From the UHGV virus genome UHGV-0258232: a stretch of 26,821 nt of DNA. One strand, given 5' to 3'. The stretch is from a virus. Position 1 is the first letter of the stretch. Each line of letters starts with the position of its first letter. Shown in pieces: positions 7,973 to 15,850 of this stretch. The notes below the pieces were generated by a model. The model had not been told where the DNA came from, made no database searches, and worked only from the letters and a program-made list of their open reading frames with translations. A program made the position numbers and the translations under genes.

Positions 7973-8789
7973 GTTAGCTGATTACAGGCCTCAACTGGAG
8001 GTCGTGGAGCATCGCGTGGCAGAACTCGAAGATGGCTACACTCGGACTGCAAACACACTGTTAGAAGCCGCCATGCTTTCTGGACTTACTCTACATCAGT
8101 TACTGATTGTTATGGCTGTGTGGCGCAAGACATACGGTTACAACAAAAAAATAGATTGGATCGGAAACGAACAGTTCGCTGAACTCACTGGCATGGCACC
8201 AACCAAATGCTCTACCGCCAAAAACGAGCTTATCAGAATGGGAGTTCTCATTCAGGTGGGGCGTCAAGTTGGTATGAATACAAACATTTCCGAGTGGAAA
8301 ACGAAAGTTAACGGATTCGGTAAAACATTTACCAATTCGGTAAAACAAACCTTCACCAAATCGGTAAAAAGCAATTTACCGAATCAGTCAAACACAAAAG
8401 ACAATATACAAAAGACAATAAATACAAATACCCCCTTACCCCCTAGCGGGGGCGGCGATGGGCAGGTTAAACCTGAACGTCGCAAGGCAGAACGAATCGA
8501 CTACGAATCCTTCCTGAACGCCTACAACACCGAAGTCGGTGACAGACTTCCACACGCTGTTGCGGTCAACGAGAAACGAAAACGCCGCCTGAAGAAAATC
8601 ATCCCGCAACTGAAAACGCCAAACGTGGACGGTTTCAGAGCGTATGTCAGGGCGTTTGTGCATCAGGCCAAGCCGTTTTACTTCGGAGACAACGACACTG
8701 GCTGGACGGCAGATTTTGATTACCTGCTGAGGGAAGATTCGTTAACGGGAGTACGGGAAGGGAAGTTTGCAGACAGGGGGATTGCATGA
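7959..8789 (+). CDS. Replication initiation protein, O-like (P22 gene 18-like)
   Basis: N-terminus shares the lambda O motif ([15 protein letters not shown]...WRKTYGYNK); iteron-coded repeats [14 protein letters not shown] in the middle; AGGAG RBS. Confidence 0.85.
8315..8384. repeat. Replication origin iterons inside the initiator gene
   Basis: ATTCGGTAAAACA (8315-8327, 8335-8347), AATCGGTAAAAAG (8359-8371) and inverted TTACCGAAT (8376-8384), followed by an A+T-rich tract (about 8391-8440). Confidence 0.75.
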
Positions 8790-10162
8790 GACAGGATATC
8801 GAAGCGAGCGTTATCGGTGGCCTGCTGATTGGTGGATTAACTCCAACTGCCAGTGACGTTCTGGCAACGCTTGAGCCGGAAGCATTTTCAATTCCGCTCT
8901 ACCGGAAAGCCTTTGAGGTTATCCGCAAGCAGGCGAGAAACAGAAACCTAATCGACGCGCTGATGGTTGCCGAAGCGTGCGGAGAGGAGCATTTCACGTC
9001 AATCCTGATGACCAGCAAAAACTGCCCGAGTGCCGCAAACCTGAAGGGATATGCCGGAATGGTCGCGGATAACTATCACCGCCGTCTGGTGCTGGAAATC
9101 ATGGATGAAATGCGTGAACCAATTCAGAGCGGCACCATCGACGTATCGAGTCAGGCGATGGATGAACTTGTAAAGCGTCTCTCAGCCATCAGAAAGCCCC
9201 GTGACGAGGTTAAACCTGTACGGTTAGGGGAAATCATTACTGACTATACTGACACGCTTGACAGGCGTCTGAGGAACGGAGAAGAGTCAGATACCCTGAA
9301 GACCGGAATTGAAGAACTTGATGCCATCACCGGAGGGATGAACGCGGAAGACCTGGTGATAATCGCTGCTCGTCCTGGTATGGGGAAAACCGAACTGGCG
9401 CTGAAGATTGCCGAAGGCGTTGCAAGCCGCGTTATTCCTGGTTCTGACGTCCGGCGCGGGGTATTGATTTTCTCAATGGAAATGAGCGCATTGCAGATTG
9501 CAGAGCGAAGCATTGCCAACGCCGGGAGGATGTCGGTTAGCGTACTGCGAAATCCTGCATCGATGGATGACGAGGGCTGGGCACGTGTTGCTAACGGCAT
9601 GAGTCAGCTTGCAGATTTGGATGTATGGGTAGTCGATGCCTCGCGATTATCGGTCGAAGAAATACGCTCAATCGCAGAACGGCACAAACAGGAAAATCCA
9701 AACCTCTCACTCATCATGGCGGATTATCTTGGCCTGATTGAGAAGCCGAAAGCAGACCGCAACGACCTCGCAATTGCTCACATCTCCGGAAGCCTGAAGG
9801 CGATGGCGAAAGACCTGAAAACACCGGTTATTTCCCTGAGTCAGCTTTCACGCGATGTTGAGAAGCGACCAAACAAACGCCCGACAAACGCAGATTTGCG
9901 TGATTCAGGAAGCATTGAACAGGACGCAGACTCAATCATCATGCTCTATCGGGAAGCGGTATATGACGAGAACAGTAGCGCCGCGCCATTTGCTGAAATC
10001 ATCGTGACGAAAAACCGTTTTGGCTCACTTGGTACGGTTTACCAGCGGTTCTGCAACGGACACTTTGTTGCATGTGACCAGGATGAAGCCAGACAGATTT
10101 GCACAGCATCAAATGCACCTGCTGCGCGTGGCAGACGATATGCACAAGGGGCTGACGTATGA
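8786..10162 (+). CDS. DnaB-family replicative helicase (458 aa), P22 gp12-like
   Basis: Walker [18 protein letters not shown], DnaB-type C-terminal RecA-like core ([24 protein letters not shown]); coupled to the upstream initiator. Confidence 0.9.
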
Positions 10163-10188
10163 CCATCTACATCACTGAGCTTGTAACA

Positions 10189-10219
10189 GGCCTGCTGGTA
10201 ATCGCAGGCCTTTTTATTT
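10189..10219 (+). terminator. Rho-independent terminator after the helicase gene
   Basis: GGCCTGC-TGGTAATC-GCAGGCC hairpin followed by TTTTTATTT. Confidence 0.7.
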
Positions 10220-10234
10220 GGGGGAGGGTAAATC

Positions 10235-10441
10235 GTGGTTGAGTTGATTTTTTCTGCATTGAGGATTCTCGGTGCTATGTGGATGGTAGCGACGTTCATT
10301 GTGGTTGCCAGCAGTTTTGTCCGGTTGGTAGGCGAAGGTAAAGACCTGGTTGGTGTGCTTTTCGGTAGCATTTTTCTGTGGGTGATTATCGGTGTTATGC
10401 CTGTTGTCGTAGCAAAAGTGGCGTGGCGTTTTGTGAGTTAA
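10235..10441 (+). CDS. Small hydrophobic membrane protein (68 aa)
   Basis: GTG start preceded by GGGAGG; almost entirely hydrophobic, about two predicted TM segments. Confidence 0.45.
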   Translation: MVELIFSALRILGAMWMVATFIVVASSFVRLVGEGKDLVGVLFGSIFLWVIIGVMPVVVAKVAWRFVS

Positions 10442-10453
10442 TCGGAGGTTAAT

Positions 10454-10870
10454 GTGAGCAAGTGCCAAAAGTGCAATAACACAGGAATGTGTGATAGCGG
10501 AGGTTCTACTCCTTGGGGAGAGCCGATTTTTATTGAATGTGACTGCCTTATGAAAGATGACGAAAGCAGATGCCAGTTTGAAGAGAGTTGGTTACGACGT
10601 GGGGGCGAATCTTCAGACCTTATCCGTTACCCTGAAAATCACCATGAAATTGGCAGTGGTGATATTGGTGGTCAATACGTGATGGACGATGTTCAAGGCC
10701 ACTGGCAAACGTGGCAGGCATCGAGAGCAGCTATTGAAATTGAGCTGCAAAAGCCAAAGAAAGGCCCACTTCCCGGTGATTATCACATTGGCTATGACTC
10801 AGGTGCAGAATCGCAATACGAAAGCGATGTAGAGGCTATCCGCGCCGCTGGAATCAAAGTGAAGGAGTGA
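10454..10870 (+). CDS. Hypothetical protein with N-terminal Cys-rich (zinc-ribbon-like) motif (138 aa)
   Basis: Track ORF, GTG start after GGAGG; CxxC...C.C cysteine cluster at N-terminus; acidic remainder. Confidence 0.55.
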   Translation: MSKCQKCNNTGMCDSGGSTPWGEPIFIECDCLMKDDESRCQFEESWLRRGGESSDLIRYPENHHEIGSGDIGGQYVMDDVQGHWQTWQASRAAIEIELQKPKKGPLPGDYHIGYDSGAESQYESDVEAIRAAGIKVKE

Positions 10871-11058
10871 GCATGAGTCGACGAAGTAGCTTTTTGGGGT
10901 TTGTAATATTCCTGTCCTGCACTGGTTACATCGTAATCTGGTCAATTTCGAACATTGACCGTGGCGGGAAATATCTCATTGTAATGTTCTTTCCTTTGTT
11001 TCTTGGGTGGTACGCCGCAAGGTTGCTGGAAGAATGGGGTTACAGGCATAAAAAATAA
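10867..11058 (+). CDS. Small membrane protein (63 aa)
   Basis: Track ORF; 4-nt overlap with upstream gene; two hydrophobic segments. Confidence 0.45.
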   Translation: MSMSRRSSFLGFVIFLSCTGYIVIWSISNIDRGGKYLIVMFFPLFLGWYAARLLEEWGYRHKK

Positions 11059-11069
11059 AGGAGTATTCA

Positions 11070-11480
11070 GTGAAGCAAACAATCTTCCTCCGAACTAAGC
11101 AACAACAGCAAGCTGCAATAAATGCCATCCTCGCAACACCACTCGATAAAGACAAGCCAGTCACCATCCGCATTACTGACTACAAGCGCAACCTTGACCA
11201 GAACGCAAAATTTCACGCGATGGTCGCAGATATCGCTAGGCAAGTTCAGTGGCGCGATAAATGGTTAAAACCAGAACAATGGAAGGTTTTGTTGATCAGC
11301 GGTCATGCAGTGGCAACAAAACAGGAAGCTGATGTTTTGCCCGGGCTTGAAGGCGAATACGTCAACATTCGCGAAAGCAGCGCGCAGATGAGTGTGAAGC
11401 GTATGGCAAGTCTGATCGAGTACACAACAGCATGGGCTATTGGTCAGGGTGTCAGATTTACCGACAGGAGGTACGAATGA
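11070..11480 (+). CDS. ninB: NinB-family recombination protein
   Basis: Track ORF 136 aa, GTG start with GGAG RBS; sequence recalled as NinB-like; first recognisable nin gene. Confidence 0.8.
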
Positions 11481-11653
11481 GGCGACAGCGACGAAGTATC
11501 ACCGACATCATCTGCGAAAACTGCAAATACCTTCCAACGAAACGCACCAGAAATAAACGCAAGCCAATCCCAAAAGAATCTGACGTAAAAACCTTCAACT
11601 ACACGGCTCACCTGTGGGATATCCGGTTGCTAAGACATCGTGCGAGGAAATGA
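11477..11653 (+). CDS. ninE: NinE-like protein (58 aa)
   Basis: Internal ATG overlapping ninB stop (ATGA); starts [23 protein letters not shown] as recalled for NinE. Confidence 0.7.
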
Positions 11654-13155: not shown

Positions 13156-13340
13156 ACGCCACAATTCAAACGATACCAGAGCTTCTTATCCAGACACGAG
13201 GCAATCAGACCGAAGTGGCAAGGATGCTTTCCTGCGCAAGAGGAACAGTGCTCAAGTACAACCGAGACAGCAAAGGCGAGCGTCACGTAATAGTTAACGG
13301 CGTCCTGATGGTCAAACAGGGCAAAAGGGGAAGGCCATGA
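13152..13340 (+). CDS. ninH: NinH-like protein (62 aa)
   Basis: IQTIPELLIQTRGNQTEVARMLSCARGTVLKY resembles recalled lambda NinH; ATGA overlaps both sides. Confidence 0.7.
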   Translation: MNATIQTIPELLIQTRGNQTEVARMLSCARGTVLKYNRDSKGERHVIVNGVLMVKQGKRGRP

Positions 13341-13960
13341 GACTCGAAAGCGCAGCTAAATTTCATTCGCCAAAAAGCCCGATGATGAGCGACTCACCAC
13401 GGGCTACGGCTTCTGACTCTCTTTCCGGTACTGATGTGATGGCTGCTATGGGGATGGCGCAATCACAAGCCGGATTCGGAATGGCTGCATTCTGTGGTAA
13501 GCACGAACTCAGCCAGAACGACAAACAAAAGGCTATCAACTATCTGATGCAATTTGCACACAAGGTATCGGGGAAATACCGTGGCGTTGCAAAGCTTGAA
13601 GGAAATACTAAGGCAAAGGTACTGCAAGTGCTCGCAACATTCGCTTATGCGGATTATTGCCGTAGTGCCGCGACGCCGGGCGCAAGATGCAGAGATTGCC
13701 ACGGTACAGGCCGTGCGGTTGATATAGCCAAAACAGAGCAGTGGGGGAGAGTTGTTGAGAAAGAGTGCGGAAGATGCAAAGGTGTCGGCTATTCAAGAAT
13801 GCCAGCAAGCGCCGCATATCGCGCTGTAACGATGCTAATCCCAAACCTTACTCAACCCACCTGGTCACGCACTGTTAAGCCGCTGTATGACGCTCTGGTG
13901 GTGCAATGCCACAAAGAAGAGTCAATCGCAGACAACATTTTGAATGCGGTCACACGTTAA
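13337..13960 (+). CDS. Q: Late gene antiterminator Q (207 aa)
   Basis: Starts MRLESAAKFHSPKSPMMSDSPRATASDSLSGTDVMAAMGMAQSQAGFGMAAFCGKHELSQNDKQKAINYLMQFAHKVSGKYRGVAKLEGNTKAKVLQVLATFAYADYCRSAATPGARCRDCHGTGRAVDIAKTE, near-identical to recalled lambda Q. Confidence 0.95.
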   Translation: MRLESAAKFHSPKSPMMSDSPRATASDSLSGTDVMAAMGMAQSQAGFGMAAFCGKHELSQNDKQKAINYLMQFAHKVSGKYRGVAKLEGNTKAKVLQVLATFAYADYCRSAATPGARCRDCHGTGRAVDIAKTEQWGRVVEKECGRCKGVGYSRMPASAAYRAVTMLIPNLTQPTWSRTVKPLYDALVVQCHKEESIADNILNAVTR

Positions 13961-14234: not shown

Positions 14235-14309
14235 GGGTCAGTCGTATAAAGGTCATTACGGAAGGCTGTTAACCTTCTTATCGTGGTTCGAGTCCACGCT
14301 GTCCCGCCA
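14235..14309 (+). tRNA. tRNA-Asn (anticodon GUU)
   Basis: Cloverleaf folded by hand: acceptor GGGTCAG/CTGTCCC (one U-U mismatch), D-loop with GG, anticodon arm GAAGG-CTGTTAA-CCTTC (GTT), T-arm CGTGG-TTCGAGT-CCACG, discriminator G, encoded CCA. Confidence 0.75.
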
Positions 14310-14314
14310 AATAT

Positions 14315-14390
14315 GCTGGTTTAGCTCCAATGGTAGAGCGGTCGCCTTGTAAGCGAATGGGTAGCGGTTCAAGTCCGTTAACCAGCACCA
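14315..14390 (+). tRNA. tRNA-Thr (anticodon UGU)
   Basis: Cloverleaf folded by hand: acceptor GCTGGTT/AACCAGC, D-arm GCTC-CAATGGTA-GAGC, anticodon loop CTTGTAA (TGT), T-arm AGCGG-TTCAAGT-CCGTT, discriminator A, encoded CCA. Confidence 0.75.
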
Positions 14391-14632: not shown

Positions 14633-14956
14633 ATGAAGATGCCAGAAAAACATGACCTGTTAGCCGCCATTCTCGCGGCAAAGGAACAAGGCATCGGGGC
14701 AATCCTTGCGTTTGCAATGGCGTACCTTCGCGGCAGATATAATGGCGGTGCGTTTACAAAAACAGTAATCGACGCAACGATGTGCGCCATTATCGCCTGG
14801 TTCATTCGTGACCTTCTCGACTTCGCCGGACTAAGTAGCAATCTCGCTTATATAACGAGCGTGTTCATCGGCTACATCGGCACTGACTCGATAGGTTCGC
14901 TTATCAAACGCTTCGCTGCTAAAAAAGCCGGAGTAGAAGATGGTGGAAATCAATAA
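14633..14956 (+). CDS. S: Class I holin S (107 aa, dual start)
   Basis: [62 protein letters not shown] matches recalled lambda S; Met1-Lys2-Met3 dual-start motif present. Confidence 0.95.
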
Positions 14957-15416
14957 TCAACGTAAGGCGTTCCTCGATATGCTGGCGTGGTCAGAGGGAA
15001 CTGATAACGGACGTCAGAAAACCAGAAATCATGGTTATGACGTCATTGTTGGCGGAGAGCTATTCACTGATTACTCCGATCACCCTCGCAAACTTGTCAC
15101 GCTAAACCCCAAACTCAAATCAACAGCAGCCGGACGTTACCAGCTTCTTTCCCGTTGGTGGGATGCCTATCGTAAGCAGCTTGGCCTGAAAGACTTCTCT
15201 CCTAAAAGCCAGGATGCTGTTGCATTGCAGCAGATTAAGGAGCGTGGCGCTTTGCCGATGATTGATCGCGGTGATATCCGTCAGGCTATCGACCGTTGCA
15301 GCAATATCTGGGCTTCACTGCCGGGCGCTGGTTATGGTCAGTTCGAGCATAAGGCTGACAGCCTGATTGCAAAATTCAAAGAGGCTGGCGGAACGGTCAG
15401 AGAGATTGAGGTATGA
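14940..15416 (+). CDS. R: Endolysin R, lytic transglycosylase (158 aa)
   Basis: [50 protein letters not shown] matches recalled lambda R incl. catalytic Glu in WSEGT. Confidence 0.95.
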
Positions 15417-15850
15417 GCAGAGTAACCGCGATTATCTCCGCTCTGGTTATTTGCTTCATCGTCTGCCTGTCATGGGCTGTTAATCATTACCGTGATAACG
15501 CCATCGCCTACAAAGAACAGCGTGATAAGGCCGCATCCACAATTGCTGACATGCAGAAGCGTCAACGTGATGTAGCAGAACTCGACGCCAGATACACAAA
15601 GGAGCTTGCTGATGCTAACGCGACTATCGAAAGTCTCCGTGCTGATGTTTCTGCTGGGCGTAAGCGCCTGCAAGTCGCCGCCACCTGTGCAAAGTCAACG
15701 ACCGGAGCCAGCAGCATGGGCGATGGAGAAAGCCCAAGACTTACAGCAGATGCTGAACTCAATTATTACCGTCTCCGAAGTGGAATCGACAGGATAACCG
15801 CGCAGGTTAACTACCTGCAGGAATACATCAGGACGCAATGCCTTCGATGA
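15413..15850 (+). CDS. Rz: i-spanin Rz (145 aa)
   Basis: N-terminal TM segment [30 protein letters not shown] as recalled for lambda Rz; periplasmic coiled-coil; central region diverges from lambda. Confidence 0.9.
15606..15797 (+). CDS. Rz1: o-spanin Rz1 lipoprotein embedded in Rz (+1 frame)
   Basis: Track ORF entirely within Rz in another frame; signal peptide, candidate lipobox VSAC, proline-rich mature region ([13 protein letters not shown]). Confidence 0.7.

Follow-up and report, generated by a model that had tools for sequence, protein, structure and literature searches.

What do the three small genes lodged between a helicase gene and ninB of a lambdoid prophage encode, and do they belong together? 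The window, by which we mean the whole 26,821-nucleotide stretch of DNA analysed (UHGV virus genome UHGV-0258232), is a P22-like (Lederbergvirus) lambdoid prophage with 99.9% identity to phage phiv205-1 in the region considered here. A preliminary description had suggested that two tiny membrane proteins and a zinc-ribbon protein encoded at 10235-11058 could form an exclusion, lysis-timing or host-takeover module. We conclude with moderate confidence that this interval instead marks the beginning of the nin region in a P22-like E. coli prophage and that its three genes are probably dispensable accessories, each shuffled separately. The locus is ordinary, since two of the three genes fall in catalogued phage families.

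Position and layout of the three genes

The interval is bordered on its 5' side by a DnaB-type helicase gene (8786-10162; Pfam PF03796/PF00772) and on its 3' side by ninB, which starts with GTG (11070-11480; PF05772). These Pfam assignments bear out the proposal that the genes occupy the position of lambda ren/ninA. As looked for in a nin region, ORF1, ORF2 and ORF3 share one strand with the replication genes before them and with the late antiterminator gene Q after them. The Q-type open reading frame (207 aa, 13337-13960) matches the PF03589 gene of loci with an identical layout. Those loci run in the order NinB-NinE-NinX-NinF-YbcO-RusA-NinH-Q-holin-lysozyme-Rz, with which the list of open reading frames in the window agrees. 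Downstream of ORF1-3, the lysis cassette (14633-15850) is complete, with a Phage_holin_3_1-type holin of 107 aa (14633-14956), a lysozyme of 158 aa and a Phage_lysis/Rz gene.

The three small plus-strand frames are present at or near the positions first reported, ORF1 and ORF2 exactly as described. ORF1 (10235-10441, + strand, 68 aa) starts with a GTG that follows the Shine-Dalgarno sequence GGAGG (10223-10227) by 7 nt. ORF2 (10454-10870, + strand, 138 aa) likewise starts with GTG, 5 nt after GGAGG at 10444-10448. We place the ORF2 start at GTG 10454 because of this strong Shine-Dalgarno sequence and because the N-terminal Cys module is kept in an ATG-initiated homologue. An internal ATG at 10550, used for a 106-aa form in the annotation of some genomes, was rejected as the start; it has no Shine-Dalgarno sequence. 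ORF3 (10873-11058, + strand) had been described as a two-segment membrane protein of 63 aa starting at GTG 10867. Its two hydrophobic segments were confirmed, but that GTG sits within the Shine-Dalgarno sequence AAGGAG (10862-10867), which lies 5 nt before an ATG at 10873. The true start is most likely this ATG, which gives the 61-aa form found by gene callers and in homologues.

The genes are as tightly packed as had been claimed, with 12 nt between the ORF1 stop and the ORF2 start, 2 nt between the ORF2 stop and the ORF3 ATG, and 11 nt between the ORF3 stop and the ninB GTG. Close packing of this ATGA style is a usual feature of nin regions (PMC8022706). A search of Rfam returned no RNA family match within the interval.

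A tR2-type terminator ahead of the genes

The terminator reported after the helicase gene was recovered by our scan as a hairpin followed by a T-run (10188-10221, + strand; hairpin 10188-10211). The hairpin has an 8-bp stem with 6 G-C pairs and an 8-nt loop; its folding energy amounts to -16 kcal/mol, though with a z-score of just -1.3. Its homologue bears the label "terminator tR2" in HK620 and "terminator" in HK75. Together, the hairpin and the HK620 annotation place a predicted tR2-type terminator ahead of ORF1-3, as in other nin regions.

This terminator is housed in a fourth tiny frame that the preliminary description had overlooked, a putative NinA-type open reading frame of 27 aa (10159-10242, + strand). 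It overlaps its neighbours at both ends, the helicase stop codon with its ATG (ATGA) and the ORF1 start with its stop (GTGGTTGA). HK620 encodes an identical peptide, annotated there as ninA ("similar to P22 NinA"), and NinA of SPN9CC is nearly identical. The 84-nt NinA block was found behind at least six different upstream gene ends, nearly always with the ATGA overlap, and in two loci (L014 and L072) the tR2 hairpin is kept although an inserted gene removes the NinA N-terminus. "NinA" annotations also appear under tblastn matches of ORF1. The identification of ORF1 itself as NinA was rejected: in HK620 and SPN9CC, NinA is the 27-aa upstream frame, and the overlap of ORF1 with annotated ninA amounts to only a few bases.

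ORF1-3 are best read as delayed-early, N-antitermination-dependent and probably nonessential accessory genes. We are highly confident of the gene identities and of the timing of expression, for which lambda and P22 biology serves as the model. An early rightward promoter would transcribe ORF1-3 only when N-type antitermination passes tR2 (10188-10211), and translation would follow a chain from helicase through NinA, ORF1, ORF2 and ORF3 to NinB from closely spaced Shine-Dalgarno sites. Exclusion by the prophage, one of the roles first suggested, is unlikely because no promoter-like site was found in 9800-11600 and because the genes lie behind tR2.

By analogy with the nin gene pool, ORF1-3 would be dispensable for plaque formation and active in lytic growth. 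Under laboratory conditions phages can do without nin genes, and deletions within the nin region arise in Sf6 populations (PMC5630979); the literature on dispensability concerns the nin regions of lambda and Sf6 (PMC10695390, PMC5630979). Indirect support for dispensability comes from the absence of each of ORF1-3 from many related phages and from the interruption of ORF2 in APEC O1 by a G5-to-G6 frameshift. Of the 15 complete genomes listed as best matches, 14 have the same 1-nt-longer interval. The frameshift and its spread also count against the reading given here.

Families and conservation of the encoded proteins

Hydropathy and charge agree with the initial picture of two small hydrophobic proteins and one acidic protein with a Cys cluster. 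The statement that none of them was recognisable could not be upheld: ORF1 belongs to phrog_1165, and ORF2 to the family catalogued as phrog_343, PF26207 and, in PGAP, "phiTE_015 family protein". Our own Pfam, NCBIfam and PADLOC scans of the three proteins gave nothing useful, none of the three matched the PADLOC-DB profiles for anti-phage defence or exclusion, and the Ren family was absent from their PHROG matches. In the literature searched for NinA, nin regions and small membrane proteins, the ORF1-3 genes were not the subject of any functional study.

ORF1 aligns with phrog_1165 over its full length (E 6.7e-36, residues 1-68 on profile positions 1-68 of 68). Judged from this alignment, it is a full member of that family. 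The carriers of phrog_1165 include HK022, HK75, HK629/630, mEpX1, Stx2a phages and P22-like Salmonella phages, in which it is a hypothetical protein. The ORF1 family comprises 193 clusters from Escherichia and Salmonella, nearly all of 68 aa, and this length is kept over 59 DNA alleles. Two allelic types occur in E. coli and one in Salmonella (43% identity, ATG start). All are 68 aa long and have in common the second hydrophobic segment (TM2) and the C-terminal tail LFGxxFxWVIIGVxPVxxAKxAWRF. ORF1 has two hydrophobic segments, a KD19 maximum of 2.62 and a GRAVY of 1.60. Its raw pN/pS is about 0.5 with pS saturated, and constraint is only moderate.

ORF3 matched no family in Pfam, PHROG, NCBIfam or PADLOC. 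Its distribution is narrow, with 4 clusters only among 5.8 billion proteins; of 5426 complete E. coli genomes, 195 (~3.6%) have it. Phages phiv205-1 and 611R6 list it as a hypothetical protein, and none of the eight RefSeq records listed (0/8) carries an annotated feature for it. Comparison with a homologue of the same length and 72% identity gave a raw pN/pS of 0.32, with 18, 8 and 22 differences at codon positions 1, 2 and 3, respectively. At 74% nucleotide identity, ORF3 still has its 61 codons, both hydrophobic segments, and the start codon with its Shine-Dalgarno sequence. Most differences between close ORF3 alleles are nonsynonymous (3 nonsynonymous versus 0 synonymous in one example), an excess that could reflect relaxed constraint.

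These data bear on whether ORF1 and/or ORF3 might be no genes at all but fortuitous frames, the DNA itself being conserved as a linker for recombination or termination. Such a reading would accommodate the lack of ORF3 features in the RefSeq records listed despite 195 carrier genomes, the mainly nonsynonymous changes between close ORF3 alleles, and the conserved junction sequences on either side (NinA-tR2, and the 3' end of ORF2 with its Shine-Dalgarno sequence). It fits poorly with ORF1, which keeps its 68 codons and hydrophobic pattern despite a nucleotide difference of ~49% over the first 144 nt, and with ORF3, in which codon number, start and segments are kept and codon position 2 changes least. 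Both genes also have strong, correctly spaced Shine-Dalgarno sequences. We regard fortuitous frames as highly unlikely. The conservation of the small frames, left for checking in the preliminary description, is borne out: the length of ORF1 is invariant, that of ORF3 is kept at the low pN/pS given above, and the ORF2 family extends to 441 representative clusters (50% identity). On the sequence evidence of length invariance, family matches and the codon-position bias of ORF3, ORF1-3 are real coding genes.

From hydropathy and the positive-inside rule, ORF1 and ORF3 would be probable inner-membrane helical hairpins whose two termini face the cytoplasm. Their size (61-68 aa), two hydrophobic segments and basic C-termini resemble those of class II holins and pinholins of the S21 type, which raises the question of whether either acts as a holin-like or antiholin-like protein that tunes lysis timing. 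Lysis timing is unlikely on account of the early-operon position of the genes upstream of Q and the complete lysis cassette already present downstream (14633-15850). In addition, neither ORF1 nor ORF3 matched a holin family in Pfam or PHROGs. Deletions in the Sf6 nin region did give earlier lysis, but the authors saw the source of the adaptive effect in the missing IS911 and/or a longer terminal redundancy and credit no specific nin gene (PMC5630979). Taken together, we consider a holin-like or antiholin-like role extremely improbable.

ORF2 is a soluble, acidic phiTE_015-family protein (pI 4.7, net charge -11) in which a conserved core is joined to an exchangeable N-terminal module, in this case a putative zinc ribbon with four Cys. 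The 138-aa protein thus belongs to a known nin-region family, that of HK022 gp59, a result that the preliminary description itself had named as counting against its proposal. The core (aa 33-138; 10550-10870, + strand) is the acidic, soluble phiTE_015-family domain (PF26207, phrog_343; E 3.2e-31 against phrog_343). PF26207 (Phage_phiTE_015) is the precomputed assignment for the identical protein and all homologues, and PGAP gives the name "phiTE_015 family protein" to the same DNA. The copy of Pfam-A that we scanned matched neither ORF2 nor four other family members, and the PF26207 model is apparently absent from that copy. Family motifs are SRxQFE, WxxWQASRAAIE and a C-terminal AAG(I/L)KVK. 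Among 75 diverse members, R39, W87, S90 and G133 are invariant, and F42, E43, W84, A89, R91, V136 and K137 are near-invariant.

The N-terminal module (aa 1-32; 10454-10549, + strand) is optional within the family: in most homologues it is missing or swapped for unrelated N-terminal modules. ORF2 has cysteines at positions 4, 7, 13, 29 and 31. Four of these (C4, C7, C29 and C31) recur in the homologues P0284 and P0026; C13 does not. P0284 is 40% identical to ORF2, contains CERCNGTG...ECEC and starts with an ATG behind its own Shine-Dalgarno sequence. In the AlphaFold (AF2) model, which is confident overall (pLDDT 87), the module forms strands at 12-18 and 24-28 with pLDDT 75-92. The N-terminus matched no Pfam zinc-finger family. 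The Cys spacing, CxxC(x21)CxC, and the modelled beta-hairpin suggest a four-Cys zinc-ribbon-like module that may bind metal.

Comparison of the ORF2 model with the PDB by Foldseek gave no match at E <=0.001, a sequence search of the PDB returned chance matches only (E >0.7), and in BFVD the model matched only uncharacterised phage proteins. No papers on PF26207 or phiTE_015 were found in the literature. Short ORF2 homologues sometimes carry the label "VOC family protein" (VOC/glyoxalase), which we rejected; it goes back to a sub-threshold Glyoxalase_4 match and has no fold support. The annotation note for the ORF2 counterpart in phiv205-1 cites Sf6 gene 48.

How the gene products might act can be addressed only tentatively. 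By analogy, each hairpin protein may bind and modulate a host inner-membrane protein, with ORF2 as a protein-binding adaptor, a proposal that we consider possible but doubtful. A bolder version is improbable as a whole: ORF1 and ORF3 would represent new classes of inner-membrane hairpin effectors that block a host membrane protein in lytic growth (a DNA-entry route or a membrane-bound defence effector, for example), ORF2-type adaptors would set target specificity through their N-terminal modules, and, separately, translation of NinA through tR2, ATGA-coupled to the upstream replication gene, would modulate termination.

Assortment of the genes and relation to known systems

The remaining question is whether the three genes function as one cooperative module, with two membrane parts and a zinc-ribbon cytoplasmic part, in superinfection exclusion, abortive infection or host takeover. 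Beyond the tight packing and common orientation of the genes, the exact 68/138/61 trio recurs unchanged behind three replication-module types (DnaB-type, IstB-type and Toprim primase-helicase). Moreover, where ORF3 alleles of at least 95% identity occur, a phiTE_015-family gene precedes them in 57 of 57 intervals, which could indicate a functional pairing and not mere linkage.

The wider pattern argues against a single module. Among 51 distinct intervals from ORF1 to ninB, ORF1 stands alone in 15, is accompanied by the phiTE_015 gene in 27 and occurs with both partners in only 9, so that 42 of the 51 lack ORF3. Conversely, ORF1 is missing from 18 of the 57 ORF3 intervals, and the gene for the 72%-identical ORF3 homologue directly follows a DnaB gene without ORF1 or ORF2. 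Of the 55 ORF3-linked ORF2 alleles examined, only 3 have the zinc-ribbon module. Elsewhere, the third slot holds unrelated genes, such as HK022 gp60 or a Cys-rich 68-aa SPN9CC protein, and HK620 has ORF1 only, unannotated. The three genes assort independently from prophage to prophage and follow at least three types of replication module, which indicates that the trio is not an obligate module, contrary to the initial proposal. The lack of PADLOC matches and of a promoter-like site in 9800-11600 for expression from the repressed prophage also weighs against a cooperative exclusion or host-takeover function, to which we assign a low probability.

The genes keep a constant position, preceded by one of three types of replication genes and followed by the recombination mediator NinB/Orf, which could instead point to a role in phage DNA replication or recombination; they might, for instance, tether the replisome to the membrane or regulate it there. 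Membrane-anchored early replication organisers are known in other phages, phi29 p16.7 being one precedent. Position is, however, the sole evidence for such a role. The genes are often missing, as in HK620 and the many intervals with ORF1 alone, the allelic type of ORF1 does not follow the helicase type, and phiTE_015-family proteins are seen in unrelated phage contexts too. A replication or recombination role is thus unlikely, and we return to separately exchanged accessory genes as the preferred reading.

Read in this way, the locus is an example of the lambdoid nin gene pool, in which conserved junction blocks surround freely exchanged small genes. Its significance beyond annotation hygiene is slight; it answers no long-standing question and should not surprise phage biologists. 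Nevertheless, ORF3 points to an annotation gap that is small but systematic: ~3.6% of the complete E. coli genomes have the gene, and the RefSeq records listed show no feature for it. The phiTE_015 family, which is widespread and confidently modelled and has no solved fold, is a reasonable structural and functional target.

Several known systems can be compared with the locus. T4 Imm and the S21-type pinholins presumably share with ORF1 and ORF3 their size, two hydrophobic segments and phage origin; ORF1 and ORF3 have no detectable sequence similarity or family match to them, and their position is unlike that of holins. Lambda was not among the phage-collection records matching ORF1 or ORF3, and ORF1-3 have no sequence relationship to lambda Ren; Ren-like genes, as in mEpX1, are separate and lie upstream of ORF1. 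The closest counterparts are found in other lambdoid phages. NinA and tR2 of P22 and HK620 resemble the identical 27-aa frame with its embedded terminator at 10159-10242 and differ from ORF1, the next gene, which was left unannotated in HK620. Within the phiTE_015 family, core motifs and fold are as in ORF2, and HK022 gp59 fills the same slot before ninB, whereas most members lack the four-Cys N-terminal module and have unrelated modules or none. ORF1 is 91% identical to HK022 gp58 (HK022_58, phrog_1165), matches it in length (68 aa) and in its place just after NinA/tR2, and shows no notable difference from it, the ORF1 of the window being the "type A" allele. Finally, the lambda ren/nin region, with its delayed-early genes from P to Q, has the same map position and tight packing as ORF1-3, and by analogy would also share with them antitermination past tR2 and dispensability.

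Three small genes at the head of the nin region

A tightly packed chain of small cistrons occupies positions 10159-11058 of the + strand, bounded by genes for a DnaB-type helicase (8786-10162, +; PF03796, 1e-77, and PF00772) and NinB (11070-11480, +; PF05772, 5e-53). ORF1 (10235-10441, +; 68 aa) and ORF2 (10454-10870, +; 138 aa) both start at GTG, with GGAGG 7 nt and 5 nt before the start, respectively. ORF3 (10873-11058, +) starts at ATG 10873, 5 nt past AAGGAG (10862-10867); its 61-aa product is the version returned by independent gene callers and present in every homologue. The preliminary description had read this gene as 63 aa from GTG 10867, but that GTG falls within the Shine-Dalgarno sequence. 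By simple hydropathy, ORF1 (GRAVY 1.60) and ORF3 each contain two hydrophobic segments; because basic residues lie at both the N- and C-termini, an N-in/C-in hairpin is suggested for each. ORF2 is predicted to be hydrophilic, with a pI of 4.7 and a net charge of -11.

Escherichia phage phiv205-1 (Lederbergvirus) matches the interval at 99.9% identity, and prophages in APEC O1 and other ExPEC genomes match it at 99.7-99.8%. Loci with an identical ORF2 have the order CII, O-type initiator, helicase, 68, 138, 61, NinB, NinE, NinX, NinF, (89 aa), YbcO, RusA, NinH, Q, holin, lysozyme, Rz. Since the ORF list of the window agrees with this order, ORF1, ORF2 and ORF3 open the nin region. Their position is the one argument for an improbable role as replication or recombination helpers. 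A role of the genes in lysis timing, raised in the preliminary description, is contradicted by their location upstream of the late antiterminator gene Q and by a full lysis cassette further downstream. The window also carries tRNA genes for Asn(GTT) and Thr(TGT) at 14235-14390, after the Q-type antiterminator gene (13337-13960) and before the holin gene (14633-14956).

NinA and the tR2 hairpin

The preliminary description passed over a 27-aa ORF (10159-10242, +) that begins with an ATG overlapping the helicase stop (ATGA) and ends with a stop overlapping the ORF1 start. In HK620 the identical ORF is annotated as NinA ("similar to P22 NinA"). The window ORF encloses a hairpin with a T-run, found by terminator scan at 10188-10211 (+), which has a fold energy of -16 kcal/mol and a z-score against shuffles of only -1.3; the equal element in HK620 is annotated as tR2, the terminator ahead of the nin genes. 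The name NinA also appeared under matches to ORF1. We rejected this assignment: NinA is the upstream 27-aa ORF, and ORF1 is merely unannotated in HK620.

The 84-nt block comprising NinA and the hairpin (10159-10242) is almost invariant; upstream it abuts no fewer than six different ends of replication genes, with the ATGA overlap in nearly all cases. Ribosomes on NinA would cover the hairpin, and the sequence thus raises the possibility of translation-dependent read-through of tR2. Some phages have a 203-aa gene between helicase and ORF1 (HK022, at 810-1503 of locus L004; also loci L014 and L072). Because this insertion displaces the NinA N-terminus and spares the hairpin, these loci suggest that the conserved element with a function is the hairpin and not the NinA peptide.

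No promoter-like site was found in 9800-11600. By analogy with established lambda and P22 biology, the three genes would most likely be transcribed from the early rightward promoter, solely after N-type antitermination through tR2 (PMC10695390), so that their expression would be confined to lytic growth.

Families and allelic variation

ORF1 is a full-length match (E 7e-36) to phrog_1165, a family that includes HK022 gp58, HK75, HK629/630, mEpX1, many Stx2a phages and P22-like Salmonella phages. Its homologues form about 190 protein clusters from Escherichia and Salmonella, nearly all exactly 68 aa. The two E. coli allelic types, A (carried here) and B, are about 55% identical; the Salmonella type is 43% identical and starts with ATG. 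All types are 68 aa long and have the second hydrophobic segment and C-tail in common. Types A and B show 70 differences in the first 144 nt and 2 in the last 63 nt; a sharp mosaic boundary lies near 10378. The first hydrophobic segment and loop are swapped as a cassette, with the second segment and C-tail constant. Raw pN/pS is about 0.5, with synonymous divergence saturated.

ORF2 matches phrog_343 (E 3e-31) and is assigned by precomputed annotation to Pfam family PF26207 (Phage_phiTE_015; PGAP name "phiTE_015 family protein"). A profile search recovered 441 representative clusters at E ≤0.001. Our local Pfam-A scan gave no match for ORF2 or four other phiTE_015 members; since precomputed annotations list PF26207 for all members, the model seems absent from that copy, and its negatives for recently added families call for caution. 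ORF1 and ORF2 are members of catalogued families of unassigned function, and the earlier view that none of the three is recognisable holds for function and fails for family.

Alignments define an ORF2-family core running from SRxQFE through WxxWQASRAAIE(I/V)EL and a variable linker to AAG(I/L)KVK at the extreme C-terminus. The N-terminus is swapped freely among four states: none (HK022 gp59, 611R6, Gally), the four-Cys module of the window ORF2, an unrelated "MRWAIKHKSGR..." module, and a roughly 100-aa domain (SPN9CC). Translation of the Cys module is indicated by a strong Shine-Dalgarno sequence ahead of it and by a 40%-identical homologue in which it is ATG-initiated and reads CERCNGTG...ECEC. 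An AlphaFold2 model (75 sequences; pLDDT 87) contains a beta-hairpin at residues 12-28, three helices and two short strands.

In APEC O1, a sixth G in the G5 run at 10601-10605 (ORF2 codons 50-51) shifts the frame past about 50 codons, and PGAP labels the gene a frameshifted pseudogene. Of the complete E. coli genomes listed as the 15 best matches, 14 have an interval 1 nt longer; the intact allele is that of the window and of ExPEC XM. The APEC O1 frameshift is consistent with a gene dispensable to the lysogen. By analogy with other nin-region genes, all three would be dispensable (PMC5630979; PMC8022706).

ORF3 had no family match in any library scanned and only four clusters in a collection of 5.8 billion proteins. 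Its most distant homologue, which directly follows a DnaB gene without ORF1 or ORF2, is equal in length and 72% (aa) and 74% (nt) identical; differences at codon positions 1/2/3 number 18/8/22, fewest at position 2, and raw pN/pS is 0.32. That the ORFs might not be genes is contradicted by such coding signatures, namely length conservation across deep divergence and codon-position bias. A search of 5426 complete E. coli genomes showed ORF3 DNA (≥95% identity) in 195. None of the eight RefSeq records listed has annotation over it, and a few phage records already hold it as a hypothetical protein; it seems to be a small ORF that annotation overlooks systematically.

Independent assortment and possible roles

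ORF1, ORF2 and ORF3 are three accessory genes that assort independently. The exact trio lies behind replication genes of the DnaB type (458 and 478 aa), the IstB type and the Toprim primase-helicase type. Viral contigs yielded 51 distinct ORF1-to-ninB intervals, of which 15 contain ORF1 alone, 27 add a phiTE_015 gene and nine have all three; ORF1 is missing from 18 of the 57 intervals found via ORF3. This assortment contradicts the single cooperative module that the preliminary description had considered.

A phiTE_015 gene lies immediately upstream of ORF3 in 57/57 of the latter intervals, with alleles 30% to 100% identical to ORF2 and the Cys module in 3 of 55 tallied. This linkage may have a functional basis. 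A recombination junction at the conserved phiTE_015 3' end (...AAAGTGAAGGAGTGAG(C/T)ATGAG) may explain it equally well, given that locus L160 has this junction next to an unrelated 74-aa gene. The segment combines the phiTE_015 3' end with the Shine-Dalgarno sequence and start of the next gene (window 10850-10880; L160 4120-4150); it is kept at the DNA level even with an unrelated downstream gene, as would suit a site of recombination. A C-terminal ...NEETNV ahead of ninB is common to HK022 gp60 and the 74-aa protein of L160.

Searches for defence, holin and Ren matches to ORF1-ORF3 returned none. A speculative and rather improbable proposal, drawn by analogy, is that the putative hairpin proteins ORF1 and ORF3 bind host inner-membrane proteins, with ORF2 as an adaptor whose N-terminal module would set specificity. 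The three genes are a real but ordinary finding. Elsewhere the third slot holds unrelated proteins, such as HK022 gp60 and a Cys-rich 68-aa protein in SPN9CC, and the arrangement is a classic lambdoid nin-region mosaic.
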